A stretch of 64,000 nt of DNA from an uncultured bacterium (GTDB lineage Bacteria > Patescibacteriota > Minisyncoccia > Phycocordibacterales > PALSA-1337), in the NCBI GenBank assembly GCA_963701025.1, contig OY969557.1, positions 801,953-865,952 on the forward strand, given 5' to 3'. How positions within the stretch are numbered: the first letter of the stretch is position 1; every line of letters begins with the position of its first letter. A program made the translations under genes and the position numbers. Under the pieces are notes generated by a model. It saw only the letters and a program-made list of their open reading frames with translations. It had not been told where the DNA came from and did no database searches. This document shows positions 1-59,645 of this stretch, one piece after another.

Positions 1-60
1 GCCGAGCCCCTGATTATATAAATGATATAATTAGGGTGATGGTATAGTCCACAAATCTTC

Positions 61-651
61 GTGATGAAAAAACACGTACAAAACATAATCATTGGTTCTC
101 TACTTGGTGATGGATGGCTTAATGCCCTATCCCCGACACAGAAATCTGTTTTCTGTATGAAGTGCCATGATAAGTCGATTGGGTATCTAGAATGGATGCG
201 AACCAAGATAGCCGAATTGGGGCCGTCTGAATTAAAGAGTATCTCGCGATATTCACAGCATTACTTCTATACTAGATCGAGTAAGGATTTAGGTGATCTG
301 CGAAAACTTTTCTATCCAAATGAGGGAAAGAAAAGAGTGCCGTCAAATATCAAGAATTTGCTTACTGACCCAGTGTCACTGGCAGTTTGGTATCAAGATG
401 ATGGGACTTTAGATTTTCGTTCAAAGTATCACAGAAATTCGTTGTTTGCGACGCATTGTTTTTCATTTGAAGACTGCTTTGTCTTAAAAGATACATTACA
501 GGAGAACTTTGGTATAAAAGTCTCTGTCTGTAAGTGTCAAATGCGTGGGAAAATGTATTATCGACTTTATGTATTTTCAGAAAGCATGGAACGCTTCGTG
601 AAAATAATCAGTCCTTTTATACATGAAAACCATGCATATAAAATAAGATAA
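61..651 (+). CDS. LAGLIDADG homing endonuclease encoded in 16S intron 1
   Basis: LLGDGWL and WYQDDGTL motifs are typical of a double-motif LAGLIDADG enzyme. The ORF lies entirely inside non-rRNA sequence that interrupts the 16S gene just upstream of the 515 region. Confidence 0.8.
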   Translation: MMKKHVQNIIIGSLLGDGWLNALSPTQKSVFCMKCHDKSIGYLEWMRTKIAELGPSELKSISRYSQHYFYTRSSKDLGDLRKLFYPNEGKKRVPSNIKNLLTDPVSLAVWYQDDGTLDFRSKYHRNSLFATHCFSFEDCFVLKDTLQENFGIKVSVCKCQMRGKMYYRLYVFSESMERFVKIISPFIHENHAYKIR

Positions 652-1299
652 TGTCAAGGCCAGCAGCAGCGGTAATACGAGTGCCTCGAGCGTTATCCGG
701 AATTATTGGGCGTAAAGGGTGCGTAGGCGGTTCCGTTAGTCTCGCGTTAAATTTCCCGGCTCAACCGGGAACCTGCGCGGGAAACGGCGGAACTAAGAGG
801 TTGGAAGGGGTTTGCGGAACTCATGGTGTAGCGGTGAAATGCGTTGATATCATGGGGAACACCAAAAGCGAAGGCAGCAAACTGGTCCAAATCTGACGCT
901 GAAGCACGAAAGCGTGGGTCGCGAATGGGATTAGATACCCCAGTAGTCCACGCCCTAAACGATGATCTCTCGCTTTGAGGAGTATCGACCCTCCTCGAGG
1001 CTTAGCTAACGCGTTAAGAGATCCGCCTGGGTAGTACGATCGCAAGATTGAAACTCAAAGAAATAGACGGGGACTTGCACAAGCGGTGGAACATGTGGTT
1101 CAATTCGACGATAAACGAAGAACCTTACCAAGGCTAGACATCCAGACGAAGATCCTGGGAAACCAGGGTCGCCGAAAGGCGGCTGGACAGGTGCTGCATG
1201 GCTGTCGTCAGTTCGTGGCTTGAGCTGTTCCCTTCAGTGGGGTAACGAACGCAACCCCTGTTGTCTGTTACAAGTATCAGACGAGACCGCCCAGCTTAG

Positions 1300-1392
1300 A
1301 GCGTGGAAGGTAGAGGGTAGAGGGTAGAGGGTAGAAATCGCATGTGCGATCGACTACTCTCCACTTTCTACTCTCCACTTTCTCCCTTCTAA
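1300..1392 (+). repeat. G-rich / CT-rich insertion in the 16S gene with (GGTAGAGG)x3 and a central ATCGCA-TG-TGCGAT hairpin
   Basis: Lies between the conserved cccagcttagag and cttctaagctggg helix arms. It shares the GGGTAGAG motif with 57112, 59236 and 59618. Confidence 0.7.
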
Positions 1393-1934
1393 GCTGGGAG
1401 GAAGGTGGGGATGACGCCAAGTCAGCATGGCCCTTTGACGCCTTGGGCTACACACGTGTTACAATCGGCGGGACAACGCGACGCAATGCCGTAAGGCGGA
1501 GCAAACCGTAATAAACCCGCCGCCAGTTCGGATTGAGGTCTGCAACTCGACCTCATGAAGCCGGAATCGCTAGTAATCGCAGGTCAGCTATACTGCGGTG
1601 AATACGTTCTCAAGTCTTGTACTCGGGTCGCCATGCGATCGAGTACGCTAGTTGGTGCAAATCCAACCCGGGCGATCAACAGCGTCCTGAAGCGAAATCA
1701 CAGTCTACTGTCCGTGAGGACTATAGATGAAGGGAGAAAGTAGCATTTCTTAGCTTGAATGCCAGTTATGGCACATATCATAGGTCATCCTGCGAGTACA
1801 TGGAGAAGCCTACTGTCGAAAAAAATGTGATATGTGTATCGTGGTATCGAGATGAGAAAAAAACAGTGTATTCGGTTACCGTGGGAGATCTTGCATAGGC
1901 TCTCGAATTATTTGAGAGTATAATATGAGTAATC

Positions 1935-2525
1935 ATGTTAAATAATATGCAAGAAGTCAGCAGAGTTCGTAGTACCATTAAGGTAGATGGTCGGTTAAAC
2001 CCGAAACTTTTTCTGCCTTTTGGGAAGGAACAAATTCAAAGGGAGAAACTAAACCCTCATTATGTTGGCGGTTTCATTGACGGAGAAGGTTCCTTCTCTG
2101 TCAGTATAGGCAAGCATAAGACTCTTCGACGAGGATATGAAGTTAGGCCGGAGTTTGAAATAGAACTTCGGAAAGACGATCAAGAAATTCTTGAACGTCT
2201 GCTCATAACTATCGGCACCGGAAGAATCTATGATTGCTCGTATGACCGTTACGGATGGTATCCTCATGTGAAGTATAAAATCACTAGTATTTGGGACATG
2301 AAAGAGTGTCTCTTTCCGTTTCTAGATGCATATCCGCTTCAGGCCAAGAAAGCCAAGTCGTATGTGCTATTCAAAGAAATAGTCTCTATGGTCTGTGATA
2401 AGAAGCATTTGAGTGATGCCGGTTTTGAGAGAATAGTGGAACTTCGCGACGAGCTCCGTGCTCTAGGGAAGAAAGCTAAAACTTATCGTGGCATGATAAG
2501 TGAATTCGATAAAAAAATCGAATGA
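1935..2525 (+). CDS. LAGLIDADG homing endonuclease encoded in 16S intron 2
   Basis: GGFIDGEGSF motif. The ORF sits between the exon ends cttgtac (1622) and accgcccgtca (2611). Confidence 0.8.
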   Translation: MLNNMQEVSRVRSTIKVDGRLNPKLFLPFGKEQIQREKLNPHYVGGFIDGEGSFSVSIGKHKTLRRGYEVRPEFEIELRKDDQEILERLLITIGTGRIYDCSYDRYGWYPHVKYKITSIWDMKECLFPFLDAYPLQAKKAKSYVLFKEIVSMVCDKKHLSDAGFERIVELRDELRALGKKAKTYRGMISEFDKKIE

Positions 2526-2932
2526 GCAACCTTTGGAAAACGCGAGGGTGCGGGAAAACCGCTTGCCCCGTGTTGAAGAGAATTATAATGGCAACATTAT
2601 AACACATCAAATACCGCCCGTCAACCCAAGGGAGTCGGAGGTGCCCGAAATCTCGCTTTATGCGGGCCTACGGCAAATTCGATGACAGGGGGTAAGTCGT
2701 AACAAGGCACGGGTAGCGGAAGCTGCTCGTGGAATATTTCAAGTGAAACAACGCTTTTGATCCTTCGGGGTCACTAGCTGAAATGTCGATATGCTCTCCT
2801 AGAGAGCATGAGTTATCGTCGCACAACTCAAAATGGCGACGCTTAGTCTCCGAAGATAGGGGACACACATGGGCACATCATCGATGAGTGCTCATGGGCG
2901 AACGGAACAAAATAAAGAGCGCTATACGAAAG

Positions 2933-2957
2933 AGCCGCCGCGAAGGCGGTTTTTTCG
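2933..2957 (+). terminator. Rho-independent terminator downstream of the 16S gene
   Basis: GC hairpin ccgccgcgaaggcgg followed by tttttt. Confidence 0.55.
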
Positions 2958-3039
2958 CGTAGGAAACGGCTTTAATAGGCCGTTATTTTGTTATACCTTT
3001 GCGTGCTTGTACAATGCGTGATGGTAAATTCTAACCTGA

Positions 3040-4115
3040 AACGCAACACCCCCGTGGTACTGTAGCGGTATACCATTACCAGCTAAATTACACACGAGGA
3101 TGTCGCACAAACAATTTAACAGAGATACTAGAGTAGAGCTAGCGATACTTTTAAGTGCAAGAAAGAGCCAGACTGAATGCGCCAGGATACTTGGCATGCA
3201 GAGAAGCAATGTCTGTCTTGAAATCAGTCGAAACAAAGATCCTGATGGTATATATCGAGGTGGTCATGCGCACAAAAGATATCTGGCAAGAAGAAGACGT
3301 GTAAAAATACTAGAGAGAAAGATCGAAAACGACAGGAAACTACGGCGTCACATCGTCCGCAAATTGAAGCGATTATGGTCACCCGAACAAATTGCAGGAA
3401 GACTGAAAATGATGACCGGAAGAACGATTGTATGTCACGAAACGATCTACACTTTTGTGTACGAGAAAAGACCGGACCTTGTAAAGTATCTGCGGCATCA
3501 GAAGTGCAAGTACCGGAAGAAAAGAGGTTCAAAAGCCCGTATGGAGCTTGCTAGAGCCATGAAAGTGAGAAGGATCGAGGAAAGACCAAAGGAAGTGGAC
3601 GAACGCTCACGCCTCGGAGATTGGGAAGATGATACTGTCATCGGCAAGGAAAGAGTTCAAAGGATCTGGAGCTGTGTTGAAAGAAAGAGCGGATACGCCA
3701 TGGCCGAGAAACTTGAGGTGGTGAGCGCAGAGATCATCAACAAAAAAGCAGTGTCTCGATTCGTAGCGTTGCCAAAATATTTACGAAGGACTCTAACCAG
3801 AGACAACGGAACTGAGGTCAGCGGATATGACAGTTTACTTGAAGAGAAAACCGGACTCGATGTATATCATGCGACCGCGTACCATTCGTGGGAGCGAGGG
3901 ACAAATGAAAACTGGAATGGATTGCTCAGGCAATTCTTTCCTAAAGGCACTTACTTTGCTACCATTACCCCATACCAAGTTCAACGTGCAGTACGAATGT
4001 TGAATGACCGGCCGAGAAAGCGGCTGGGCTACAGAACACCAAGGGAGGTATTCAGAGGGTGTATTGATTCAGATTAGAACTTGAGGATGTGGTATTGACA
4101 CAGGGACTACGGTGT
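3040..4115 (+). mobile_element. IS30-family insertion sequence; ends approximate
   Basis: A single transposase ORF of IS30 type. Weak imperfect inverted similarity between about 3045-3075 and 4084-4112. Confidence 0.5.
3100..4077 (+). CDS. IS30-family DDE transposase
   Basis: N-terminal HTH followed by an rve-like DDE core, with GDWEDDTV (IS30 G-WE-D motif) and the conserved C-terminal region. Confidence 0.8.
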   Translation: MSHKQFNRDTRVELAILLSARKSQTECARILGMQRSNVCLEISRNKDPDGIYRGGHAHKRYLARRRRVKILERKIENDRKLRRHIVRKLKRLWSPEQIAGRLKMMTGRTIVCHETIYTFVYEKRPDLVKYLRHQKCKYRKKRGSKARMELARAMKVRRIEERPKEVDERSRLGDWEDDTVIGKERVQRIWSCVERKSGYAMAEKLEVVSAEIINKKAVSRFVALPKYLRRTLTRDNGTEVSGYDSLLEEKTGLDVYHATAYHSWERGTNENWNGLLRQFFPKGTYFATITPYQVQRAVRMLNDRPRKRLGYRTPREVFRGCIDSD

Positions 4116-4542
4116 GCTATGATGTAGTCTGATTCAAATAAGTGCAGTGTAGTATCGTTCCGGCAAAAAACAGCGGAACGCAACAATCAAAAATCGTAAA
4201 CAACAAATGAACGCGAAATCACGACTGAAATATTCACGTGGGGACAGAGGTCCTTCACTGAAAGGCTTCGTCAGCTGGCTGGTCGGTCCGCCGTGCAGAA
4301 TGCCTCGGGAACGGTACAATCCCTCCTGGAAGACCGAGGTGCCCGGATGCCTTCTCTTTGCCCTTATGATTTACGGGCTACTGAAGTTGTTCTGAGCCAC
4401 CTGACCCTATTGTCTACGGGCGCCGGAGTATGTATCTCTCCGGCGCTTTCCCATTTCCGCTTCCGCTGATTTTTGCCTCTTTTTCATAATTGCTCTATAG
4501 TAGGGAAGTTCGCTTCAATTGCGGTCTGTACAATGTAAATTT

Positions 4543-4624
4543 GGGCATGTGGCGGAATTGGTATACGCGTACGCTTCAGGAGCGTATGGAGCAATCCTTG
4601 GGAGTTCGAGTCTCCCCATGCCCA
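4543..4624 (+). tRNA. tRNA-Leu(CAG)
   Basis: Hand-folded cloverleaf. Acceptor stem GGGCATG/CATGCCC, anticodon stem TACGC/GCGTA with loop TTCAGGA (anticodon CAG), a long variable arm and T-loop GGGAG-TTCGAGT-CTCCC. Confidence 0.75.
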
Positions 4625-4652
4625 CCGTGGGTTCAAGACGCTTTTAAATCAA

Positions 4653-4979
4653 ATGGATCTGACCAACAAAAAGTGCGTGCCGTGCGAAGTGGGCGGTTTG
4701 CCGCTCACCGGTAAACAGATTGTTTCTTACATGAAAGACATACCGAAATGGAAAGCCTCGCCCGACGATACCAAGATCTCGCGATCATTCAAGTTCGACG
4801 ATTTCAAAGAGTCGCTCGCATTCGTGAACAAGGTCGGTGGATTGGCGGAGAAAGAAGGACATCATCCGGACATGCACATCCATTACAACGAAGTGCTGGT
4901 CGAGCTATCGACGCATTCCGTCGGAGGTCTGTCGGAGAACGACTTTATCCTGGCGGCCAAGATAGATCTGATCGCGTAA
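4653..4979 (+). CDS. Pterin-4-alpha-carbinolamine dehydratase (PCD/DCoH)
   Basis: ~108 aa with the EGHHPD signature and overall PCD architecture. Confidence 0.75.
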   Translation: MDLTNKKCVPCEVGGLPLTGKQIVSYMKDIPKWKASPDDTKISRSFKFDDFKESLAFVNKVGGLAEKEGHHPDMHIHYNEVLVELSTHSVGGLSENDFILAAKIDLIA

Positions 4980-5031
4980 GCCATCAGCGCGACTGGCGTT
5001 CCCGGCCTTTTTTTGCTAGATTTCCTTCATT

Positions 5032-5104
5032 GCGCGCATAGCTCAGTTGGTAGAGCACACCACTGATACTGGTGGGGTCCTAGGTTCGAATCCTAGTGCG
5101 CGCA
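5032..5104 (+). tRNA. tRNA-Ile(GAT)
   Basis: Hand-folded cloverleaf. Acceptor stem GCGCGCA/TGCGCGC, anticodon stem CACCA/TGGTG with loop CTGATAC (anticodon GAT) and T-loop CTAGG-TTCGAAT-CCTAG. Confidence 0.85.
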
Positions 5105-5280: not shown

Positions 5281-6108
5281 ATGAATATCGGAAAAAGAAT
5301 TGTAGTAAAGGACAGTAAAGTCAGTTTCATTTCTCGAAATGGAGATGATTATATTTCCTTGACTGATATTGCCCGTTATAAGAATTCTGAGGAACCCAAA
5401 GATATAGTAAAAAATTGGATGAGGAATAGAAGCACTATTGAATTCTTAGGCATATGGGAAAAAATCAATAATCCGAATTTCAAAGGGGTCGAATTCGACT
5501 CCTTTAGAAATGAAGCAGGAAGTAATGCTTTCGTATTATCACCACAGAAGTGGATCCAGACAACACAAGCTGTCGGTATGATTTCTAAATCAGGTCGTTA
5601 TGGTGGTGGTACATATGCTCATAAGGATATAGCATTCGAATTTGCGGCGTGGATAAGTTCAGAGTTTAGGTTTTATCTAATCAAAGAATTCCAACGGTTA
5701 AAAGTGGAAGAAAGCCAGAGAATAGCTATTAGTTGGGATGTTAAAAGAATATTATCAAAAATCAATTATAGGATACACACTGATGCAATAAAGGAAAAGC
5801 TTATTCCACCAGTAATCAGTAAGTCTAGAGAAGTGATCATTTATGCAAACGAAGCGGATGTTTTAAACATGGCATTATTTGGCATGACTGCAAAGAATTG
5901 GAGAGATGTAAATTCAAATAAAGAAGGTAATATTAGAGATTATTCTTCGGTTGAACAATTGGTTGTTTTGGCAAATCTGGAAAGTTTGAATGCCGAATTT
6001 ATTTTGCAAGGCATATCTCAAGGAGAACGTCTAAAAAAACTCAACGAAATTGCCATACGTCAAATGCGTTCACTTTTGGGTACCGATTCAATAAAAAAGT
6101 TAGTTTGA
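5281..6108 (+). CDS. KilA-N domain protein, phage-associated DNA-binding type
   Basis: N-terminal KilA-N-like region (SLTDIARY...). Markedly lower GC than the flanks. Confidence 0.55.
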   Translation: MNIGKRIVVKDSKVSFISRNGDDYISLTDIARYKNSEEPKDIVKNWMRNRSTIEFLGIWEKINNPNFKGVEFDSFRNEAGSNAFVLSPQKWIQTTQAVGMISKSGRYGGGTYAHKDIAFEFAAWISSEFRFYLIKEFQRLKVEESQRIAISWDVKRILSKINYRIHTDAIKEKLIPPVISKSREVIIYANEADVLNMALFGMTAKNWRDVNSNKEGNIRDYSSVEQLVVLANLESLNAEFILQGISQGERLKKLNEIAIRQMRSLLGTDSIKKLV

Positions 6109-13805: not shown

Positions 13806-14000
13806 ATGATCCAAAAGAATATGAAAAAAGAAGACTCCCTGTGCGTCTGTCCCGAATGCAAGAACACAGTCGACATTTCCCGCTATCCGAACATCGCCCC
13901 CGGCATGGTCATAGAATGCGATCATTGCGGCATGACCCTCTCGGTCAAGGAGATCGCGAATGCGGAGATCAAGACGGAGATCGTCGATGAAGGTAAGTAG
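13806..14000 (+). CDS. Small zinc-ribbon protein, LysW-like
   Basis: CPEC...17 aa...CDHC zinc ribbon in 64 aa. Confidence 0.35.
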   Translation: MIQKNMKKEDSLCVCPECKNTVDISRYPNIAPGMVIECDHCGMTLSVKEIANAEIKTEIVDEGK

Positions 14001-15429
14001 CGCACTCCTCTATCATCCCTCGGAAGCCGTGTGAGCCTAGGAAGGCGATGACGTCTCTACGCTTTGCTTGCGACTGGAGAAAGATGACAAGTTTCTTGTC
14101 ATCTTCTACATAGACGGTATGAGGATGCGTCGCGCCTATCGTCGCCGCCAATTCATCGCCCTCAATCGGCGGGGTCGGTTCATCGTCCGCTTTTTTCAGC
14201 TTTGTCAGCCGGGGTATGACGACGATGTCGGCGTCCGCGAAAGCGCCATCGTATTTAGCCGCAGACTCGCGGCGCCTGCCGCCGATATTCGGCTCGAAGA
14301 CGACGATGATCTTGCCGTCGTATATATTCCGCAATTCTTTCAGCACGGAAGAGGCTTTTTCCGGCGAATGGGCGATGTCGTCGAGGACGGTGACGCCGGC
14401 ATTCAAAATGGAACCGTCCAGCCGCTTCTCGAGGCGGCGCTTCAATCCCTTGAACGATGCCATGGCCGCGACGATCTTTTCCGACGCGATGCCGATCTCG
14501 TGCGCCATAGCGAAACAGCCCGTGATATTCTCGGCTTGGAACGAACCCAATAGGGGTGATCTCACTTTGAATGTCTGTCCTTGGTGGACGATGCCGAACT
14601 CAAGACCATCTTTCGATTGATGGACATCGCGATAGGAATAGTCGGCACCGGAAGAACCATACCAGACGATCTTTTTCGAAGAGCCGGCGAGCGTTCGGAC
14701 GACACCCGGCTGATCTTTATTGGCTACGATAAGGCCGGAGTTGGGGACGATGAAGCCGGAGTCAGGTATGCCCGCGACTAATTTCTTGAAAGCGTCGAAA
14801 TAGTCCGCTTCGGTCGGATAGAGATCGGCATGATCCCAGGATACCGCCGATAGGAGCAGGTGCGTAGGCCGGTAATGGAAGAACTTGGCCCGCAGGTCGG
14901 TGGGCGAGCTTTTGTATTCGTCGCCTTCGAAGACGCTCCAATCGCTCCTGGAAAGCCGAGCTGGAGCTTCCGTCGACAGCGCTACGCCGCCGAACATGTA
15001 TGACGGGTCTAGTCCGGCCTCGGAGAGGATATGCGAAAGGAGGGCCGATTGGGAGGTCTTTCCCCATGTGCCGGTGCAGACGATGGAATGCTTTCTGACG
15101 AAATATCGGCCGATGGCTTCGGCGAACGAGCACGCCGGTATGCCGAACTGTTCGGCCGCGGCGGTCTCCGGGTTCTGCCTGCCGGAAGCCGTGCCGATGA
15201 CCACGAGATCCGGAGCGCCGCCAGCCACCATCTTTTCCGGATGCCAGCCGGCGTAAAAATCGATGCCGGCCCTCTCCAGCTCGGTCGAAACCGGCGGGAA
15301 GAAGCCCTTGTCGGAGCCGGTCACCTTGACGCCGGCCTTGTGGAAGGCGATGGCCAAGGCGCTGGTGGCCACGCCGGATATGCCGATGACGTGAATATGG
15401 CGCGGTAGTTTCGGCAGGCTTGCGTTCAT
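13969..15429 (-). CDS. murC: UDP-N-acetylmuramate--L-alanine ligase (MurC/Mpl family)
   Basis: HIHVIGISGVATSALA N-terminus, TGTWGKTS P-loop and the Mur ligase domains. Confidence 0.75.
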   Translation of the reverse strand: MNASLPKLPRHIHVIGISGVATSALAIAFHKAGVKVTGSDKGFFPPVSTELERAGIDFYAGWHPEKMVAGGAPDLVVIGTASGRQNPETAAAEQFGIPACSFAEAIGRYFVRKHSIVCTGTWGKTSQSALLSHILSEAGLDPSYMFGGVALSTEAPARLSRSDWSVFEGDEYKSSPTDLRAKFFHYRPTHLLLSAVSWDHADLYPTEADYFDAFKKLVAGIPDSGFIVPNSGLIVANKDQPGVVRTLAGSSKKIVWYGSSGADYSYRDVHQSKDGLEFGIVHQGQTFKVRSPLLGSFQAENITGCFAMAHEIGIASEKIVAAMASFKGLKRRLEKRLDGSILNAGVTVLDDIAHSPEKASSVLKELRNIYDGKIIVVFEPNIGGRRRESAAKYDGAFADADIVVIPRLTKLKKADDEPTPPIEGDELAATIGATHPHTVYVEDDKKLVIFLQSQAKRRDVIAFLGSHGFRGMIEECATYLHRRSPS

Positions 15430-15450: not shown

Positions 15451-15837
15451 ATGCAGAACGGCGAAAACCGCCGAATCATGGCTCTAAGATATAATCTCAC
15501 CGCTCTTACACATATGAACGAAAATTCTCCGCACACGCTAGCCGACTTGGCCGCGGCGGCGCAGGAAGGCAAATACTTTTTCGAGTTCGAGAATCTCCCT
15601 ACAGGCATCAAGGACGAAGAAGTGTGGGATATATTCGGCGAATATGACGATATCCAGCTTATACCTCTGGGGGCCGAAGACTCTTATTTTGCCGGGCTGC
15701 TCGGCGAAGACCAAGCAGTCTGGACCGACGATGACAAGCTCTTGTTCACCATAGTGAAGAACAAGCGCCAACAGGAGGGGATCTTGGTCATCAGATTCGA
15801 GCCTGACGGCGTCAAACTGCTCAAAGGGATGGTATAA
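15451..15837 (+). CDS. Hypothetical acidic protein
   Basis: ORF only. Confidence 0.3.
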   Translation: MQNGENRRIMALRYNLTALTHMNENSPHTLADLAAAAQEGKYFFEFENLPTGIKDEEVWDIFGEYDDIQLIPLGAEDSYFAGLLGEDQAVWTDDDKLLFTIVKNKRQQEGILVIRFEPDGVKLLKGMV

Positions 15838-15911
15838 TTGCCAGAACCGAGCCAGCGTCTCTCTAACCCCCGCGCTTCATGTCGCGGGATTTTTAATTTT
15901 TCAGGACTACG

Positions 15912-16646
15912 TCATCTCTTCAAAAGATCCTTGATTGCCTCCGTGTCTTTTCGCCACGCGCCGGATTCTCCCCCGCCGACCGGCGGACCGCCGTCGAACC
16001 ATTCGAGGCCGGAAAATTGGAGCTTATAGGTGTCTCCTGGTCTTTGGAGGGAACCCAGATAAACAAATCGTTTACCGGTCTCTTTGGCGTGTTGTATAGC
16101 TTGTATCATCATGCCGAGGCCCATGTCTTTGGGCGCGGCGGCCAGATCGTAGAACGGATATGAATAGTGCAAAAGCGTCGCATTAGAATAGCAGATAGCA
16201 TATCCAAGCGGCTTGCTTTCTGCATCCCGGTCAGGCTTATATGTGAGCAGGGCGTTAAAATTGCTTTTGGCCGGGTCAGTCAGCATTTCCTTAACCTTTG
16301 CCGCGCTCATAATGCCAGCGCCGAATTTATTTTCATAGAAATCCTTGGCCATTTTGCCTATAGACCAGTCATACTCTTTGAGCGGCACTTTAGTCAAGTA
16401 AAGTGGCACTCCTTCAACGTTCGTGCTGACTGTGCCCGTGCCGCCCATATTCGCGCCGACTTTCTTCAATATACGCCTGTTCTCGCTCGACAATTCGAAC
16501 CGCGCCAGGTTGATCCGCACGCTCCGCGTCTGATGCATGACGCCCTTTCCTATCCTAGTGAAGACATAGCCGCGCGCGTACATATCGGCGACATTCTCCT
16601 CCGAGAAGTCGGTTATAGTTTTCTCATCCCAATGTAAGTAGTTCAT
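15912..16646 (-). CDS. Putative aminoacyl-tRNA:protein transferase-like protein (ATE/Bpt or FemAB-like GNAT fold); tentative
   Basis: YARGY...RSVRINLARFELSSENRRILKK resembles the R-transferase/Bpt core. Assignment is weak. Confidence 0.3.
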   Translation of the reverse strand: MNYLHWDEKTITDFSEENVADMYARGYVFTRIGKGVMHQTRSVRINLARFELSSENRRILKKVGANMGGTGTVSTNVEGVPLYLTKVPLKEYDWSIGKMAKDFYENKFGAGIMSAAKVKEMLTDPAKSNFNALLTYKPDRDAESKPLGYAICYSNATLLHYSYPFYDLAAAPKDMGLGMMIQAIQHAKETGKRFVYLGSLQRPGDTYKLQFSGLEWFDGGPPVGGGESGAWRKDTEAIKDLLKR

Positions 16647-16678
16647 GTTAAACCTTTTGACCCTTCCACCTTTTTATC

Positions 16679-17807
16679 TTAATGCAGCGCCAGCCAGAAT
16701 CCGAAGACCACGAAGATGAAGTGCACCACCCAGAATCTCATGACGGTCTTCTCCTCGCTCCAGCCCTTGAGCTCGAAATGATGGTGAAGGGGCGCCATGG
16801 CGAAGACTTTGCGGCCGAAGAGATAGCGCGAACCGACCTGGATGACGACGGACAGGGCCTCGATATAGAACATGAAGCCGAGGAAAGGGAGCGAGCCAAG
16901 CTCGCCGATGGCCAAGGCGTTCACGGCCAGCAGGGCGCCCAAGCCGAGCGAGCCGACGTCGCCCATCATGAATCGCGCCGGCTTGATATTGAAATAAGTG
17001 TACGCGGTGATGGCTCCGACGGCGGTGGCGTTCAGGATGGCGATCTCGCCGAAGCCGTTGATCCACGAGAGCAGGGTGAGAGCGCTGAAGGTCGTGATGA
17101 GCATGCCCCCGGCCAAGCCATCCATGCCGTCGGCGATGTTGACTGCGTTGGCCGTGAACATGACCACCAGGATGACGATCGGCACGATCATCCAGCCGGC
17201 GTCGATCGACCAGCCGAAGGGAAAGTAGATGAAATGCCAGGCTGGCCCGAGCTTGTCATAGACCCACCAGGCGGTGACCGCTCCGGCGATGAATTGCAGT
17301 ATGAGCTTCTCATGGACGAAGACGCCGCGCCGAGTCCGCGAACCGAACCAGACGGACATGCGCTTGAAGGCGGTCCATGGCAGAGTGACGAAGTACCAGA
17401 ACGCGCATAGTCCATTCTTTGTGGATATGGACGAGCGTCCAAACATGAGAGAGCTTGCGGGAACGCCGCTCGGCGCCATATATGCTCATGAGGTCATCCA
17501 CTGCGCCTAGGAGGGCGGAAAAAAGCATGACGCCGACAGGCACGTAGGTGAAAGAGCGGGACCAGTTGAAGAGATAGGTGATGACGGCCACGGTCACGAT
17601 GACCAAAAGGCCGCCCATGACCGGTGTAGTGGCCTTGTAGGCGTGCGAGCCGAGCATGGTGAGCTCGGTCTTCGGGCCTTTTATGACATGGAAGCGGTAG
17701 AGCAGGCGTATAAGAAACGGCGCCCAGATGAACGCCACGACGGCCCCGACGAGCATGAAACCGATGATATAGGCCAAGTCGGCCGTGCCTTGGAGGATGC
17801 TGATCAT
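16679..17807 (-). CDS. mraY: Phospho-N-acetylmuramoyl-pentapeptide transferase MraY, interrupted by one frameshift near 17350-17390
   Basis: N-terminal part (KATTPVMGG, VDD...RK) is in ORF 17310..17807. C-terminal part (NAVNIADGMDGLAGG, MGDVGSLGLGA, PLHHHFELKGW) is in ORF 16679..17479. The frame change lies in a CTCTCTC run. Confidence 0.8.
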
Positions 17808-17859
17808 GGGAGAACGATAGCATGAAAATAGGGCTATGTGGAGGCTTTATGGGGTGGTA

Positions 17860-17888
17860 TTGACATAGGTGTTGATTGGGTGTATAAT
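17860..17888 (+). promoter_or_regulatory. Consensus sigma70 promoter TTGACA-17-TATAAT driving the DGR target gene
   Basis: Perfect -35 and -10 hexamers with a 17-nt spacer, ~110 nt upstream of the ATG at 18002. Confidence 0.6.
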
Positions 17889-18001
17889 GTCGACAGGTTA
17901 GAGATAGTTCATTTCCAACCCGCTGTGGCGAAGAGCCCAGCACCAGTAAATCCGAGCATGCCTCTATGAGGCTCGCTCAAAACAAGAAAGGACACGCTAT
18001 T

Positions 18002-18634
18002 ATGAATAGCACGTTCGCAATGAGTCAGGGTGCAGGTCAAAAATTGGAATTCGCTTTCCAACGCAACGATGGGAGTACAGCCGATTTGGATTGGCTCTCC
18101 ACTGGCGACAACCTCAAGTCAGTTATGCTACTCGCCCGGGGCGAAGCGGAATTGATCCTCAAGGTCAAGCCTGCTCCCGAGCCGGGGCCGGTTATCGACT
18201 CCATCATCCGTGTGGACCGCTCGATTCGTCCCACGTATCCCGATTGGGTTAAGACTGTGATGCATCCGGAGCTGGAGCCTCTTGGTCCGGCCGAGTATGA
18301 CATCGCGGAAGTCGAGCAATGGCTCCACGAAGGCCAGAAGGACGGGAAGTGGATCGAAGGCAACAATATCTACGCCCATCTCAAGGAGATCGACACTCTG
18401 AAGACCTGCCTCGGACTGCGTGACCTTGAAGAGATCCAAAAGAAAGGCATTGCCTTCTTCCGGAAACACTTTGGCGGCAAAGCAGTCTTTGGTTGGTCCG
18501 GTGTCGTGCGGCTCCGCCATGGCGACCTCTGCGTCCCGTACCTCTGCGGGTTCGGTGACAGAGTGGTCCTCTACTGGAGCTGGCTCGGCCTCGGCTGGGA
18601 CGGCGACTACCCGGCTCTCCGCCACGCAAGTTAG
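18002..18634 (+). CDS. DGR target (variable) protein with a C-terminal variable region; alternative start 17966
   Basis: The last ~42 codons (18505-18629) form the variable region matching the template repeat. AAAGGA RBS before 18002. Confidence 0.7.
   Translation: MNSTFAMSQGAGQKLEFAFQRNDGSTADLDWLSTGDNLKSVMLLARGEAELILKVKPAPEPGPVIDSIIRVDRSIRPTYPDWVKTVMHPELEPLGPAEYDIAEVEQWLHEGQKDGKWIEGNNIYAHLKEIDTLKTCLGLRDLEEIQKKGIAFFRKHFGGKAVFGWSGVVRLRHGDLCVPYLCGFGDRVVLYWSWLGLGWDGDYPALRHAS
18505..18629 (+). repeat. DGR variable region (VR)
   Basis: 125 nt aligned to 19013-19137 with 21 mismatches, every one at a position where the other copy has A. Confidence 0.85.
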
Positions 18635-19143: not shown

Positions 19144-19497
19144 TCATTTCTCTCCTGTTTTTGCGGGAGAGTTTTGCTTTGTAAGCTGCCCGCTCCAGCC
19201 GCCGAGATTGGTGCCGATCTCCTCGAGCTTCACCGATAATGCGATATATTTCTTGTCGTCGAGTGACTTGGATTCCCAAAGTATCATAAGTAACACTTTA
19301 AGTGTGTCGAGCTTTCGTATGGCTAGGCGGACATAGGGCGATTTCTCTTCTCTGGAGAGGAATGTGGCCGCGGCGATAGCTTCTATGATTTCCACGAATA
19401 GGCAATCTATCCGCAGTCCTATAGAATATCTGTGTTCCTTCGGCAATTCCATATAATACCCATGCCACATCAGATACGCATCTTTGATCTTGCGCAT
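19144..19497 (-). CDS. avd: DGR accessory variability determinant Avd (four-helix-bundle family)
   Basis: The C-terminus LEEIGTNLGGWSGQL resembles BPP-1 Avd EVGRILGSWIARV. ~117 aa. The ORF-track TTG start at 19506 is replaced by the ATG at 19497. Confidence 0.65.
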   Translation of the reverse strand: MRKIKDAYLMWHGYYMELPKEHRYSIGLRIDCLFVEIIEAIAAATFLSREEKSPYVRLAIRKLDTLKVLLMILWESKSLDDKKYIALSVKLEEIGTNLGGWSGQLTKQNSPAKTGEK

Positions 19498-19514
19498 GAC
19501 CGGCAAAATTCCGT

Positions 19515-19525
19515 GGGGGGGGGGG
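19515..19525. repeat. G11 homopolymer between the divergent avd and RT starts
   Basis: ccgtGGGGGGGGGGGcttt seen directly. Confidence 0.9.
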
Positions 19526-19535
19526 CTTTCATAGC

Positions 19536-20530
19536 TTGCGACGGATCCGGTTTGCTCATATGTACGATGATATCATCTCCCTTGAAAATCTGCTCGAAGC
19601 ATGGAGAGAATTCGTAAGAGGGAAACGAAAAAGAAAAGACGTCCAAAATTTCGAGCGGGATCTGATGGCGAATATCATTTCGCTCCATCGAGACTTGGCA
19701 GCAATGACTTATGAGCATTTGGAATATGAATTCTTCAGGATTTATGATCCGAAGCTGCGAGACATCCATAAAGCCAGCGTCAGAGATCGTGTGCTTCACC
19801 GGGCCTTGCATAGAAAATTGTATCCATTCTTTGAGCGCACATTCATAGCAGATTCTTTTTCATGCCGGCTCGATAAAGGGACTCACAAAGCCTTAGATCA
19901 ATTCCGATCGTTCTCGTATAAAACGTCTTGCAACCGCACCAAGACGGCATGGATTTTGAAATGCGACATTAGGAAATTCTTTGCTTCAATAGATCAGACC
20001 GTTCTCATGGAGATCTTATCGATCTATATCCAAGACGAGAATGTCCTGGCTCTGGTGTCGAAGGTCGTCTCGAGCTTTTCTTCGACAGCAAAAGGGATTG
20101 GCTTGCCATTGGGCAATCTCACCTCTCAACTTCTCGTGAATATATATATGAATGAGTTCGATCAGTTCATGAAGCATAAGCTTAGGCGAAATATTATATC
20201 CGCTATGCCGATGATTTTGTCATCCTTTCAATAGATAGAGATTGGCTCTGCAACCTTATTCCAAAGATCAGCGATTTTCTCGAGACCAGGCTTAAGCTCA
20301 AGCTTCATCCGAACAAAATCAGCATTGAAACGTTCGCTTCAGGCGTTGATTTCCTCGGCTGGGTGCATTTTCCCGATCACAGGGTGCTCCGGACCAAGAC
20401 TAAACAGAGGATGTTCAGGAATATAAAAATAAAACAGGCCAAGTCTGAAACAATCCAGTCCTATCTCGGCCTACTGAGTCACGGAAACACCAAAAAGCTG
20501 CAGAATATCATAACCACTTCAATCTCCTGA
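19536..20530 (+). CDS. DGR reverse transcriptase, interrupted by a single -1 frameshift at about 20184-20189
   Basis: N-terminal LENLLEAWREFVRGKRKRKDVQNFERDL and motif IGLPLGNLTSQLLVNIYMNEFD are in frame 0 (19536-20189). AKYYIRYADDFVIL (YxDD) and KLKLHPNKISI continue in frame 2 (20186-20530). Restoring one G in aggcg joins them. Confidence 0.8.
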
Positions 20531-37937: not shown

Positions 37938-39799
37938 AGATATTATATCTTGCCAACATACGTCTGCCGACGCAAAGGGCCCACGGTGTGCAGATCATGG
38001 AAACCTGCGCCGCCATGGCCGCGGCAGGCCATGAGGTCACGCTCGCCGTATCCTCTTGGAAATCTGACGATGAGGACGCAATATTTTCTTACTATAATCT
38101 GCCAAAAAGCTTCGCTATAGTAAAGGTTGCCGGAGTCGGGCTCGTATCGTGGGGTAGAGTCGGCTTCTTCGCGAGATCTTTGCTTTTTTCCCTGAATGTG
38201 CGCAGAACGATTGATACCGGTCTATATGACGCAGTCTACACCCGTGATGAGTCGCTCGTGCGGCGCGGCTTTTTCTATGAGATCCATGATGTGCGCAGGG
38301 GTTCGTTTCAGCGTCATGCTCTCGCTCGTGCGGCTGGCATCGTGGCCATCACTCGCGGATTGGCGGACTATTGCCGTTCGGCAGGCGTCGGAGAGGATAG
38401 GCTGATAGTAGCCCCCGGCGGCGTCGATATTTCGAAATTCGATGTTCCGGAAGGTAAGGAAGCATGCCGTGCCAAGCTCGGCCTGCCTTCAGACGGCAAG
38501 ATCGTCCTCTATCTGGGTCATTTATTCTCTTGGAAAGGAGCCAGTATGTTAACGGAGGCCGCCTCATTGATCTCCGGTAAAGTGTCATTTCTATTTGTAG
38601 GTGGCACGGATTCAGATGTCTCGTTATTCAACGGCAGATTTGGCTCTGATCATCGCATCAAGCTCGTTGGCTATCAGCCGCGCTCCCGTGTACCGTATTA
38701 TATGCGCGCCGCCGACGTCTTGGTCTTGCCGAATAGCGGGAGAGAGGCCGTCTCGCGCCTCTATACGTCGCCGATGAAGATTTTCGAATACATGGCCAGC
38801 GGCACACCCATCGTCGCTTCCGACCTGCCCTCCTTGCGGGAGATACTGGACGGATCGAATGCCGTCTTGGCGGCGCCGGATGATCCCAAAGATCTCGCCA
38901 GAAACATAACCAGACTTATCGGCGATCCTGGTCTGGCCGGAAAGATATCGGAAAAAGCGAGGACGGACGTAGAACGATACACATGGTCGGCTCGAGTCTC
39001 GAGCATTATCGCTCTAATGAAAGACCGTCGTCCGGCGCTCAAAGACACCGCTTTCTATAATAAGGCGAGCGATACATATTCGAGTCGGCGTTATCCGGAG
39101 AAAAGCACTGATTACAATCATTTCTTCTTCAAGCGGCGCTTGGATGTAGTGATCGATATCTTGGAAGACGTCGTACCGCGGATGCAGAACCCTTCGCTTC
39201 TCGAGGTCGGCTGTGCCGATGGGGTGGTCTTGAGACGGGTCTTCGAGAAATTCGGCATGGGCATATCTTCATATGCTGGCATAGACATCGCTCCGCGCAT
39301 GATAGAGGTCGCCCATAAAAAGCATGCCGGTACCCCGCTTAGATTCTCGATACGCGATCCGAAAAAATGTTTCGGCGGCAAGGGTGGGAGCAGTTGGGAT
39401 ATCCTGATCGAGATCGGTGTGCTCAACTATGCCGACTTTGATCTGGAAATAGAGTGCGTAGAGCGGTCTCTTTCTGTTGCAGGTTACTACATCTGTTCCG
39501 TTGCCGGGAATGGCTCGCTTTGGGACCGCCTAGTCAGGGTCGACAAAAGATTCGAGAATTTCATGTCATATGCGGAATATGAAACGAAGATCCGTCGGTC
39601 ATTTGATATCGTGCGAGCGTATCCAGTCGGCCTTTATCTGCCCAAACTTTGGCGCGTACCAGCCATAGCGAGAATTATGCAACCGATATCTGAATCATGT
39701 ATTAGGCCGTTCTTACCGGGGTTGTTCCATGAGAAAGTCTATCTCCTGAAACGGTTTTCTCGTCCATCTCTCATATCTGTATCCAGCCATCGGGGATGA
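37934..39799 (+). CDS. Bifunctional GT4 glycosyltransferase / SAM methyltransferase fusion
   Basis: N-terminal GT4 region and C-terminal LLEVGCADGVV methyltransferase motif. Confidence 0.6.
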   Translation: MKILYLANIRLPTQRAHGVQIMETCAAMAAAGHEVTLAVSSWKSDDEDAIFSYYNLPKSFAIVKVAGVGLVSWGRVGFFARSLLFSLNVRRTIDTGLYDAVYTRDESLVRRGFFYEIHDVRRGSFQRHALARAAGIVAITRGLADYCRSAGVGEDRLIVAPGGVDISKFDVPEGKEACRAKLGLPSDGKIVLYLGHLFSWKGASMLTEAASLISGKVSFLFVGGTDSDVSLFNGRFGSDHRIKLVGYQPRSRVPYYMRAADVLVLPNSGREAVSRLYTSPMKIFEYMASGTPIVASDLPSLREILDGSNAVLAAPDDPKDLARNITRLIGDPGLAGKISEKARTDVERYTWSARVSSIIALMKDRRPALKDTAFYNKASDTYSSRRYPEKSTDYNHFFFKRRLDVVIDILEDVVPRMQNPSLLEVGCADGVVLRRVFEKFGMGISSYAGIDIAPRMIEVAHKKHAGTPLRFSIRDPKKCFGGKGGSSWDILIEIGVLNYADFDLEIECVERSLSVAGYYICSVAGNGSLWDRLVRVDKRFENFMSYAEYETKIRRSFDIVRAYPVGLYLPKLWRVPAIARIMQPISESCIRPFLPGLFHEKVYLLKRFSRPSLISVSSHRG

Positions 39800-56449: not shown

Positions 56450-57727
<1,278 letters not shown>

Positions 57728-59215: not shown

Positions 59216-59615
59216 GAGAATGAGGGTATTGAGAAGGGTAGAGGGTAGAGGGTAGAGGACTAACTTTTAATTTTCTCAGAAGGCCGCATAGCATTTTCTG
59301 GATTTCAGTAGTCAATGACTCTACCTTAGATAAATCAATTTTCGGATAGATCATTTTTGAAATGATTGTCTGGGTCTCCAATTCTGCTGAAGAGCCATCC
59401 GCGATGCTTAGGAATTGAATGTATTCTTTGCGATTCTTCCTCTTATATCCCTCTGCGATATTTGAAGGTATAGACACGGAAGACCTTCTCATCTGGGAAA
59501 CTATGCCGTAAAGCTCAGATTTCGGGAACGATTCAGTTGCCTGGTATACCTCCTTGACCAGTTCAATCGATTTCTGCCAAACTGTTAATTCTTTGAACGA
59601 TTGCATATGTGCCAT
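59196..59615 (-). CDS. Four-helix-bundle protein (23S rRNA intervening-sequence protein family)
   Basis: LTVWQKSIELVKEVYQATESFPKSELYGIVSQMRRSSVSIPSNIAEGY family signature. The C-terminal tail is encoded by the GGGTAGAG repeat. Confidence 0.75.
   Translation of the reverse strand: MAHMQSFKELTVWQKSIELVKEVYQATESFPKSELYGIVSQMRRSSVSIPSNIAEGYKRKNRKEYIQFLSIADGSSAELETQTIISKMIYPKIDLSKVESLTTEIQKMLCGLLRKLKVSPLPSTLYPSQYPHSHAQKTN
59236..59258. repeat. (GGGTAGAG)x3 repeat at the 3' end of the four-helix-bundle gene
   Basis: gggtagagggtagagggtagagg. Encodes PSTLYPSQYP in the minus-strand ORF. Confidence 0.8.
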
Positions 59616-59617
59616 TT

Positions 59618-59645
59618 CTATACCCTATACCCTATACCCTAAAAC
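59618..59645. repeat. (CTATACCC)x3 repeat just upstream of the four-helix-bundle gene start; a near inverted partner of 59236-59258
   Basis: ctataccctataccctataccctaaaac. Confidence 0.75.

Follow-up and report, generated by a model that had tools for sequence, protein, structure and literature searches.

[quoted passage not shown]

A 16S rRNA gene at the window edge

The window, the whole 64-kb stretch of DNA that was analysed, opens inside a bacterial 16S rRNA gene. Positions 1-2744 hold the 3' two-thirds of the gene and correspond to E. coli positions 517-1542; the 5' third (E. coli 1-516) lies upstream. In a covariance-model search of the window, this region matched Rfam RF00177 with 786 bits (gathering score 50). 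Genuine rRNA begins at position 659, the equivalent of E. coli G517, and the part of the RF00177 alignment that runs over 482-658 is spurious. A sequence-only reading of this DNA had described a CPR 16S gene with two insertions encoding LAGLIDADG proteins. This was borne out by the RF00177 match and by the Pfam matches of the two open reading frames, the first to LAGLIDADG_2 (PF03161; E = 6.3e-32, profile positions 2-168 of 168) and the second to LAGLIDADG_1 (PF00961; E = 1.1e-19). The features of the gene are collected in Table 1.

Table 1. Features of the 16S rRNA gene, in window coordinates. A slash marks an insertion junction.
Feature	Position	Strand	Basis
3' part of group I intron (intron 1) at E. 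coli U516/G517	1..658	+	empty versus occupied alleles; the window start cuts the intron
Group I core remnant: P3' strand, P8 hairpin, J8/7-P7' motif (GAUGGUAUAGUCC)	1..52	+	alignment with L088 3939-3990
Intron 1 ORF, 196 aa, two-motif monomeric LAGLIDADG homing endonuclease, I-SceI-like	61..651	+	Pfam and PDB matches
16S rRNA exon, E. coli 517-1397	659..1624	+	RF00177 alignment; alignment to E. coli rrsA and relatives
Hairpin extending 16S helix 40, 105 nt	1292..1396	+	fold, TRF arrays, relatives
Group II intron (intron 2), IIC-like, 988 nt, at E. coli C1397/A1398	1625..2612	+	Rfam group II models; empty site; homologous introns
8-nt 5' linker (GGGUCGCC), then AUGCG, a GUGYG-like motif	1625..1637	+	5' ends conserved across loci
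EBS1 loop GAGUAC	1794..1799	+	complement of GUACUC, the six bases that close the exon (IBS1, 1619-1624)
Intron 2 ORF, 196 aa, domain IV, single-motif LAGLIDADG homing endonuclease	1935..2525	+	Pfam and PDB-family matches
Domain V: CGC triad, one bulged A, 2-nt bulge (UY) on the 3' strand, GAAAA loop	2541..2572	+	covariation
Domain VI hairpin, GCAA loop, 3' end ...AU	2577..2612	+	homologous tails
16S rRNA 3' exon, E. coli 1398 to ~1542	2613..2744	+	alignments; 3' end approximate

The universal motifs are intact in the exons, and the pairing of h28 and h45 is preserved. A921:U1396 replaces the U921:A1396 pair of E. coli in every locus in which both strands were seen, and U1396 is therefore exonic. 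The exons are 96.6% identical to those of a relative, L001, and 95% identical over 604 nt to a Ca. Taylorbacteria locus; the relatives were all Patescibacteria. The host is, as judged by sequence, a Patescibacterium of the class Paceibacteria, with Ca. Taylorbacteria as its nearest named relative. Independent assemblies showed this gene architecture again, as did dozens of species. CPR genomes carry one rRNA copy as a rule (PMC11270868), and the gene is probably of the single-copy type, in an organism with one rRNA operon. No 23S gene linked to it was found within the 64-kb window. The 16S gene is followed, at a distance of 350 nt, by an IS30-family transposase gene; no terminal inverted repeats were found flanking the latter.

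Two introns, probably of different class

The insertion points had been put near E. coli positions 515-530 and 1395-1400, and they lie at U516/G517 and C1397/A1398, respectively. Each intron had been estimated at ~1 kb. This holds for intron 2 and was seen directly there alone, because the window start truncates the gene: 658 nt of intron 1 are visible, and exon 1 and about 265 nt of the intron are absent from the window. An exact-sequence search with the intron 1 ORF returned no contig, and relatives stood in for the missing upstream part. The complete intron of the same variant in L088 is 924 nt long (3672-4595). In the covariance-model comparison neither intron folds as rRNA helices, so the objection that these segments might be ordinary rRNA fails for both.

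The site of intron 1 is occupied in L001, L088 and L089, and is without an intron in L005, which reads CTCGT/GCCAGCAGC. The termini are those of a group I intron. Relatives have an exon ending in CUCGU, the window reads UCAAG(658)/GCCAGC and the empty allele is CTCGTGCCAGC, so that U closes the exon and G the intron, the last base (G658) being the terminal (omega) G. In the Rfam search the window itself gave no match to Intron_gpI (RF00028), because the group I core is mostly cut off by the window start. The L088 intron scored 41.9 bits with this model (E = 1.5e-9), under the gathering score of 50; L089 had the same score, and L092, at 54.5 bits, exceeded the threshold. The core remnant of the window aligns with a segment of L088 that occupies model positions ~152-232 in the Rfam alignment, and its GAUGGUAUAGUCC motif recurs in L001 (8650-8695). 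Intron 1 is classed as group I by way of its same-variant relatives, the ORFs of which are 87% and 72% identical to that of the window; the nearest of them has the score of 41.9 bits, under the threshold. Group I structure, which had been raised for both insertions, finds support in the relatives' scores for intron 1 and does not apply to intron 2, which is group II.

The ORF of intron 1 follows the ribozyme core and ends shortly before the 3' splice site, its stop codon lying 7 nt upstream of that site. Its top PDB match was I-SceI (E = 4e-8, residues 11-195), both acidic motifs are readable (GSLLGDGWL and WYQDDGTL), and all 171 homologues belonged to PF03161.

Intron 2 was recognized by two Rfam models, group-II-D1D4-1 (RF01998; 49.8 bits, gathering score 35, at 1918-2030) and group-II-D1D4-3 (RF02001; 32.4 bits, gathering score 32, at 1708-1873). 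The empty site, CTTGTACTC/ACCGCCCGTC, is found in L088 and L089, and homologous introns at C1397/A1398 were present in 82 sequences, made up of 81 loci and the window itself. The AUGCG motif, which alternates with GUGCG among loci, stands 8 nt inside the intron, away from the 5' splice site. The GAGUAC loop, at intron position ~170, is almost unchanged across some 80 loci, falls within the D1D4-3 match and is flanked by a stem that covaries. The IBS1 exon is invariant, so the EBS1-IBS1 pairing is shown by complementarity, with no covariation score attached. Four observations put the junction at 1397/1398: the A921:U1396 pair, the unvarying GUACUC, the empty site and the EBS1 loop. They speak against a 5' splice site behind C1395 and against a second exon that begins with AU, and both alternatives were rejected. 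A second GAGUAC, at 1643-1648, was rejected as EBS1: it is not kept in distant members and is part of the base of domain I.

The 12 pairs of domain V were 100% paired in 47 distinct sequences, five of them compensatory; no shuffle did as well, and slid controls gave 30-57% pairing. The Rfam model of domains V and VI, RF00029, did not match this domain V, which is slightly unusual in its bulged A and 5-nt loop. Domain VI was seen in 70 distinct tails as GNRA-loop hairpins with covarying stems. In ~28 of these tails one bulged A was predicted, at -8 or -7, and in the subgroup of the window the A lies in an internal loop; A2606 (position -7) may tentatively be put forward as the candidate branch point. 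The ribozyme measures ~397 nt without the ORF. By its CGC triad, its small ribozyme and the published classification, intron 2 is assigned to an IIC-like type.

The intron 2 ORF comes after the D1-D4 match, and the intron is without a reverse transcriptase. The protein matched single halves of the I-PnoMI, I-PanMI and I-OnuI family (E ~1e-34). Its homologues (n = 595) come mostly from Patescibacteria, and the GFIDGEGS motif is invariant. The conserved ribozyme motif AGAAGUCAGCAGAG..GUAGUAC doubles as the coding sequence of the N-terminus, QEVSRVRST. Having one LAGLIDADG motif, the enzyme is expected to act as a homodimer.

The helix 40 hairpin and the 3' end

A repeat-containing insertion of ~90 nt had also been noted. 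It was recovered as the 105-nt hairpin of Table 1, which is a plain extension of helix 40 and not an intron. The predicted fold of the surrounding 126 nt has an energy of -70.7 kcal/mol, with z = -7.7 relative to shuffled sequences, and the hairpin has 44 pairs, seven of them G-U. The 5' arm consists of four to five tandem GGTAGAG heptamers and the 3' arm of a complementary 14-nt repeat (CTACTCTCCACTTT, twice); TRF reported arrays at 1297-1335 and 1354-1383. Matches to microRNA families in Rfam were far under their gathering scores and reflect nothing more than a long hairpin. At the same site relatives have anything from a canonical loop of ~10 nt to hairpins of ~190 nt and unrelated sequence.

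The GGGTAGAG motif of the hairpin had been reported from three other sites in the window, and all three were found. It occurs eight times against 1.2 expected, a count reached by no shuffle: at 1315/1322 in the hairpin, and at 38152, 57111/57118 and 59236-59250. Outside the hairpin, two sites are intergenic arrays of tandem heptamers (GGGTA[G/T]A); the third, at 38152, is a lone copy that could easily be due to chance. The tandem units of the relatives' h40 hairpins were not found elsewhere in their loci, which span only 2-20 kb.

The hairpin would be a fast-evolving, repeat-built extension of an rRNA helix that either stays on the surface of the ribosome or is trimmed away by RNase III. A real possibility, which we hold at somewhat short of even, is that it is instead a small mobile or RNase III-excised element and no retained rRNA expansion. 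The near-perfect duplex of ~44 bp is an ideal RNase III substrate, the presence, length and sequence of the hairpin vary between close relatives, and its heptamer unit is also arrayed at two intergenic sites of the window, all of which is in keeping with such an element. However, no terminal repeats, target duplication or sequence shared between genomes were seen for the h40 hairpins, the arms resemble locally expanded tandem repeats, and the hairpin is in every case continuous with the native h40 stem, as expected of a helix extension. In its strongest form the reading as a helix extension has the hairpin persist in the mature ribosome, where it would form a bacterial expansion segment of very fast turnover that grows by slippage of short tandem repeats, here of the GGGTA[G/T]A heptamer that is also arrayed between genes. 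We consider this form unlikely. If true, it would make h40 a hotspot at which a genome-wide microsatellite process writes into structural RNA.

At the 3' end of the gene h45 is intact (2708-2731, GGAA loop), and is followed by GAAUAUUUCAAG instead of GAUCACCUCCUUA, with no CCUCC anti-Shine-Dalgarno (anti-SD) sequence. The sequence after GTCGTAACAAGG had been called non-canonical, possibly owing to a small third insertion. The first part of this stands and the second does not. A GAAUAUUUCAAG-type tail is present also in L001, L005, L008-L035 and others, dozens of related genomes in all, and the loci of Magasanik-, Uhr- and Falkowbacteria retain GGATCACCTCCTT. A third small intron after h45 was rejected, the same tail being found clade-wide and CCUCC being restored nowhere downstream. 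The non-canonical 3' end is explained by the loss of the anti-SD sequence that has been published for a subgroup of the Parcubacteria (Tsurumaki et al., 2022; PMC9297842). SD-like motifs were not enriched upstream of genes (4 of 63, as compared with 12.7% at random positions).

Reading of the gene and comparison with known systems

Gene identity, the exact intron borders, the intron class (by way of relatives for intron 1), the conserved and covarying RNA elements and the intact endonuclease ORFs were established here. We conclude that the region is very probably a CPR 16S gene with a group I intron and a group II intron, both encoding LAGLIDADG proteins, and a long extra hairpin. The whole gene would yield a long precursor transcript, and repair would take place in the RNA, by splicing. 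Intron 1 is predicted to fold as a P3-P9 core and to excise itself by guanosine-initiated two-step transesterification. Its enzyme would cut intron-less alleles (ACTCGT/GCCAGCAGC), and repair of the cut allele by homologous recombination would copy the intron in (homing). Recognition of the 5' exon by intron 2 would rest on pairing of its GAGUAC loop (EBS1) with the terminal GUACUC (IBS1). The lack of a reverse transcriptase and the presence of a LAGLIDADG enzyme in domain IV suggest that it spreads by DNA-level homing into CTTGTACTC/ACCGCCCGTC sites and not by retrohoming. A related CPR enzyme, I-ShaI, is described in the 2024 CPR survey as cleaving its own insertion site (PMC11270868).

Two other accounts of the insertions fare poorly. 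According to the first, which we regard as very improbable, the large insertions are intervening sequences (IVSs) that are cut out and left unligated, giving a fragmented 16S rRNA. RNase III-processed IVSs occur in some 23S genes. Among CPR rRNA insertions, unligated insertions of the IVS type are likewise thought to be present (PMC11270868). Ribozyme hallmarks were seen in both insertions, however: a group I core in one, and domain V covariation, an EBS1 match and two Rfam group II matches in the other. Moreover, a break at 1397/1398 would sever the strand that links h28 to h44 in the decoding centre. Least probable of all is a dead 16S copy wrecked by mobile elements, with a clean functional copy elsewhere in the genome: an IS30-family transposase gene adjoins, no 23S gene is linked and the view is limited to 64 kb of the genome, but the exons remain close to those of L001, compensatory pairs are retained in h28, neither h45 nor the universal motifs are damaged, the architecture is common to independent assemblies and dozens of species, and CPR usually have a single rRNA copy (PMC11270868).

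The intron-bearing gene is the preferred reading, and genes like it will be missed or mis-sized in 16S surveys. The site of primer 515F is presumably split by intron 1, with one further mismatch, and that of 1391R/1392R, we assume, by the 988 nt of intron 2. A full-length 16S amplicon would run about 2 kb over length. The locus offers a clean, fully delimited case of two ribozyme classes, each with a LAGLIDADG enzyme, in the most conserved parts of SSU rRNA. Current understanding is unchanged by these findings; CPR 16S genes of this kind are already described and catalogued (PMC11270868, PMC9297842).

The first mention of a group II-like insertion near position 1400 of a CPR 16S gene is said to date from 2015 (Brown and colleagues), and an intron at rns-1396 of Thiomargarita was reportedly described in 2012 (Salman and colleagues). 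Intron 2 is closest to the CPR insertion '16IS9' (Tsurumaki et al., 2024; PMC11270868), with which it shares host clade, gene, site, the Rfam group II signal, a single-domain LAGLIDADG_1 ORF and the lack of a reverse transcriptase; that survey reports LAGLIDADG_1 in the group II-like insertions of CPR 16S genes at ~1400. Nothing substantive sets intron 2 apart from '16IS9'. New for the lineage are the exact border at 1397/1398, the IBS1-EBS1 pair, the domain V covariation and the 8-nt 5' linker.

The rns-1396 group IIC-LHE family has a 5' terminal linker, an LHE in domain IV, no EBS2, a CGC triad and a small ribozyme, and was reported only from Thiotrichaceae (Liu et al., 2026; PMC13190283). 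Likened by published description, the Thiomargarita/Thiotrichaceae intron shares with intron 2 the IIC-type backbone (CGC triad, small size), the 5' linker and the single-motif LHE in domain IV. The 16S site is the same or adjacent, alignment giving 1397/1398 here rather than 1396, and the host is a Patescibacterium here and a gammaproteobacterium there. Set against a report confined to Thiotrichaceae, the ~80 Patescibacteria loci at 1397/1398 suggest that the known bacterial reservoir of the group II-LHE family is much larger, and the 2024 survey had already recorded group II-LHE introns in CPR (PMC11270868). The enzyme of intron 2 has one motif, in contrast to its solved relatives I-OnuI, I-PnoMI and I-PanMI, which are two-motif monomers.

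The S516 group I introns of eukaryotic nuclear SSU rDNA lie in a stretch of rRNA that is conserved universally, with exon U and intron G at the ends and a peripheral endonuclease gene. Intron 1 has these features in common with them. It shares them, and probably the group I ribozyme, also with the CPR 16S group I introns that carry LAGLIDADG_2 or LAGLIDADG_3 ORFs (Tsurumaki et al., 2024); in CPR, LAGLIDADG_2 ORFs cluster at the recurrent sites 16IS5 and 16IS10, both of which that survey lists as sites of group I introns (PMC11270868). It differs from both in that its enzyme is I-SceI-like, similar to I-SceI across the full length, and follows the core, beside the 3' splice site. Even in L001, with its closely similar exons, the intron at 516/517 has an ORF of just 39% identity, placed ahead of the P3'-P8-P7' core. 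The 3' tail without CCUCC, by comparison, is like that of the anti-SD-less Parcubacteria 16S genes (PMC9297842) and shows no difference from them.

Intron 2 of the 16S gene

The insertion between C1397 and A1398 (E. coli numbering), intron 2, matched two Rfam group II models, D1D4-1 at 1918-2030 (score 49.8, gathering score 35) and D1D4-3 at 1708-1873 (32.4, gathering score 32). The sequence-only reading had proposed two LAGLIDADG-encoding introns, with group I structure to be sought; the ORFs were found in both, while group I structure did not hold for intron 2. Its protein had 595 homologues, and a profile scan that took a single genome for each species gave 80 loci, all in Patescibacteria save for a few apparently mislabelled bins. 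Several public bins labelled Saccharibacteria, Bathyarchaeia, Gammaproteobacteria or Hodarchaeales carry this Paceibacteria-type 16S intron (loci L013-L015, L068 and L074; protein P0072), and are probably mis-binned or mislabelled contigs.

Four independent observations set the borders. The flanks are the same in every locus (5' TTGTACTC, 3' A[C/T][C/T]GCCCGTC), with variable sequence directly inside. Every locus in which both strands of helix 28 were visible has the pair A921:U1396, a compensatory swap of U921:A1396 in E. coli, indicating that U1396 and C1397 are exonic. A GAGUAC hairpin loop at about intron position 170, near-invariant across loci on a covarying stem, is the exact complement of the exon end GUACUC (IBS1-EBS1 pairing). 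The related loci L088 and L089, which lack intron 2, read CTTGTACTC/ACCGCCCGTC at the empty site.

Domain V (2541-2572) was paired in 100% of 564 cells representing 47 distinct sequences. Five of its 12 pairs were altered on both sides; no shuffle matched this, and slid controls were 30-57% paired. Its triad is CGC, as class IIC introns typically have, which is also consistent with Liu et al. (2026) and suggests that intron 2 is IIC-type. Domain VI forms a hairpin with a GNRA cap and a covarying stem. About 28 of the 70 homologues are predicted to have a lone bulged A at -8/-7; the window's subgroup has an A in an internal loop, where A2606 is the candidate branch point, so that splicing may proceed either by branching or by hydrolysis. 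At the 5' end, an 8-nt linker (GGGUCGCC) precedes AUGCG/GUGCG.

The intron 2 ORF product is similar to one half of the I-OnuI/I-PnoMI family. Its N-terminus is encoded by the conserved ribozyme motif AGAAGUCAGCAGAG…GUAGUAC (positions 1935-1975 and 1918-2030), and the first ~12 codons (QEVSRVRST) were near-invariant in 18 aligned homologues, so the same bases are under both RNA and protein constraint. No reverse transcriptase was found in intron 2, and its mobility must therefore be DNA-based homing. For both introns, splicing, its chemistry, ligation and endonuclease activity are predicted from sequence.

Features of the 16S gene and of the window, with window coordinates
Feature	Position	Strand	Remarks
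Intron 1 ORF	61-651		complete LAGLIDADG_2 domain, 6e-32
~90-nt insertion	1292-1396		near-perfect hairpin prolonging native helix 40
Intron 2	1625-2612		988 nt, group II
Intron 2 ORF	1935-2525		single-motif LAGLIDADG_1 protein
IS30-family transposase gene	3100-4077	+	NCBIfam NF033563, 3e-70; between 16S and tRNA genes
Two tRNA genes	4543-4624, 5032-5104		downstream of 16S; one with long variable arm
Pterin-4a-carbinolamine dehydratase gene	4653-4979		between the two tRNA genes
KilA-N domain protein gene	5281-6108		after tRNA/dehydratase genes
Tandem GGGTA[G/T]A arrays	57104-57125 (+), 59236-59257 (+), 59619-59639 (-)		intergenic

Intron 1 and its turnover

The window was aligned to E. coli rrsA (locus L007) and three related metagenomic loci. 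The bacterial SSU model of Rfam scored 786 bits on the region; its alignment of 482-658 as rRNA was spurious. Genuine rRNA begins at 659, which corresponds to E. coli G517, so the window start truncates the 16S gene, leaving positions 1-516 and the first portion of intron 1 upstream.

The related locus L005, which has no insertion at this site, reads CTCGT/GCCAGCAGC; the insertion in L001, L088 and L089 lies between U516 (the T before the slash) and G517. Both group I splice-site rules are satisfied at intron 1, since the exon before it ends in U and the last insertion base is G (G658 in the window). Since the window holds no more than the final ~55 nt of the core, the Rfam group I model found no match in it. 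Window 1-52 (GCCGAGCCCC…GGGUGAUGGUAUAGUCC) aligned with the P3'-P8-J8/7-P7' segment of same-variant relatives, in which the intron 1 ORF is 87% and 72% identical and Intron_gpI matches sit directly upstream of it. L088 and L089 scored 41.9 bits (E 1.5e-9), below the gathering score of 50, and L092 scored 54.5 bits, above it; the complete intron is 924 nt in L088. These relatives argue for assigning the window's intron 1 to group I. Its ORF product most resembles I-SceI, a monomeric, two-motif protein, and both acidic motifs are legible in the translation.

The exons of L001 and the window are 96.6% identical, yet the ORF of the L001 intron at site 516 is only 39% identical to the window's and precedes the P3'-P8-P7' core, where the window's ORF follows it. 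Introns at this site thus evidently turn over between close relatives, in agreement with the published view that rRNA insertion elements are repeatedly acquired (PMC11270868).

Helix 40, the 3' end and the surroundings

The helix-40 hairpin has 44 pairs, of which seven are G-U, and the fold of a 126-nt stretch enclosing it reaches -70.7 kcal/mol (z = -7.7). One arm holds four to five copies of GGTAGAG and the other a complementary 14-nt repeat. Across relatives the site ranges from the ~10-nt canonical loop up to ~190 nt, a hairpin every time; these hairpins are unrelated in sequence and frequently made from other short repeats. We read the insertion as a hypervariable helix extension, which could be either kept in the ribosome or trimmed by RNase III. 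The recurrence of GGGTAGAG in the window, noted from the sequence alone, was borne out (8 matches in all, 1.2 expected). The lone copy at 38152 may be due to chance. The array heptamers, GGGTAGA and GGGTATA, are the unit that makes up the 5' arm of the hairpin. The array at 57100-57150 lies within a small hairpin of its own (TAGGGCATAG…CTATGCCCTA).

Helix 45 is intact (CACGGGUAGC-GGAA-GCUGCUCGUG), and the 16S tail reads GAAUAUUUCAAG where GAUCACCUCCUUA is canonical. The canonical tail is retained in Magasanik-, Uhr- and Falkowbacteria loci, whereas L001, L005 and about thirty loci of Taylor-, Zambryski-, Nomura- and Kaiserbacteria type end in one like the window's. A Parcubacteria subgroup has already been described as having lost the anti-SD motif (PMC9297842). 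With the tail common to the clade, the small third insertion that the sequence-only reading had allowed for here is absent. The window's genes showed no excess of SD-like motifs upstream (4/63, against 12.7% at random positions), and TATAAT-like boxes often lie 5-15 nt ahead of the start codon (e.g. 6844, 13969-15429, 22624, 56480). This suggests short or absent leaders, which would fit the missing anti-SD.

No 23S or 5S rRNA gene was found anywhere in the 64-kb window. In L005 the 23S gene starts ~4.8 kb past the 16S 3' end, after three protein genes; its Rfam LSU match is interrupted (15596-18424, with a separate fragment at 19417-19598) and includes a tRNA-like match at 17321-17406. The transposase gene lies within a stretch (~2925-5006) where the DNA match to L001 stops at 2924 and restarts at 5007; the matching spacer of L001 is without it, and no terminal inverted repeats were found around it. 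A run of ~11 C/G occupies the short spacer (~19507-19535) between divergent ORFs at 19144-19506 (-) and 19536-20234 (+). In the closest relatives, L001 and L002, a DUF3800-IX RNA motif (Rfam RF02968, 55 bits; 566-629, minus strand) adjoins a DUF3800 gene ~6.7 kb upstream of the 16S gene; the counterpart region is beyond the window.

Comparison with known elements

Tsurumaki et al. (2024) surveyed 380 CPR 16S genes and found insertions in 48% (PMC11270868). Group II-like insertions were confined to the vicinity of position 1400 and in most cases encoded LAGLIDADG_1; LAGLIDADG_2/_3 ORFs concentrated at the recurrent sites 16IS5 and 16IS10, counted among group I intron sites; short insertions without an ORF were common, and there were no reverse transcriptases (PMC11270868). 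From giant sulfur bacteria, Salman et al. (2012) and Liu et al. (2026; PMC13190283) describe an intron of the IIC-LHE type at position 1396 of the 16S gene. By its published description the Thiomargarita rns-1396 intron resembles intron 2, and the bacterial rns-1396 LHE family likewise has a 5' linker (PMC13190283). Given these matches, we conclude that the window's 16S gene is a well-preserved further case of kinds already known. To what was known, the analysis adds nucleotide-exact borders, the IBS1-EBS1 pair and domain V covariation, together with evidence that introns at site 516 have been replaced between near-identical hosts, and the range over which helix 40 varies.
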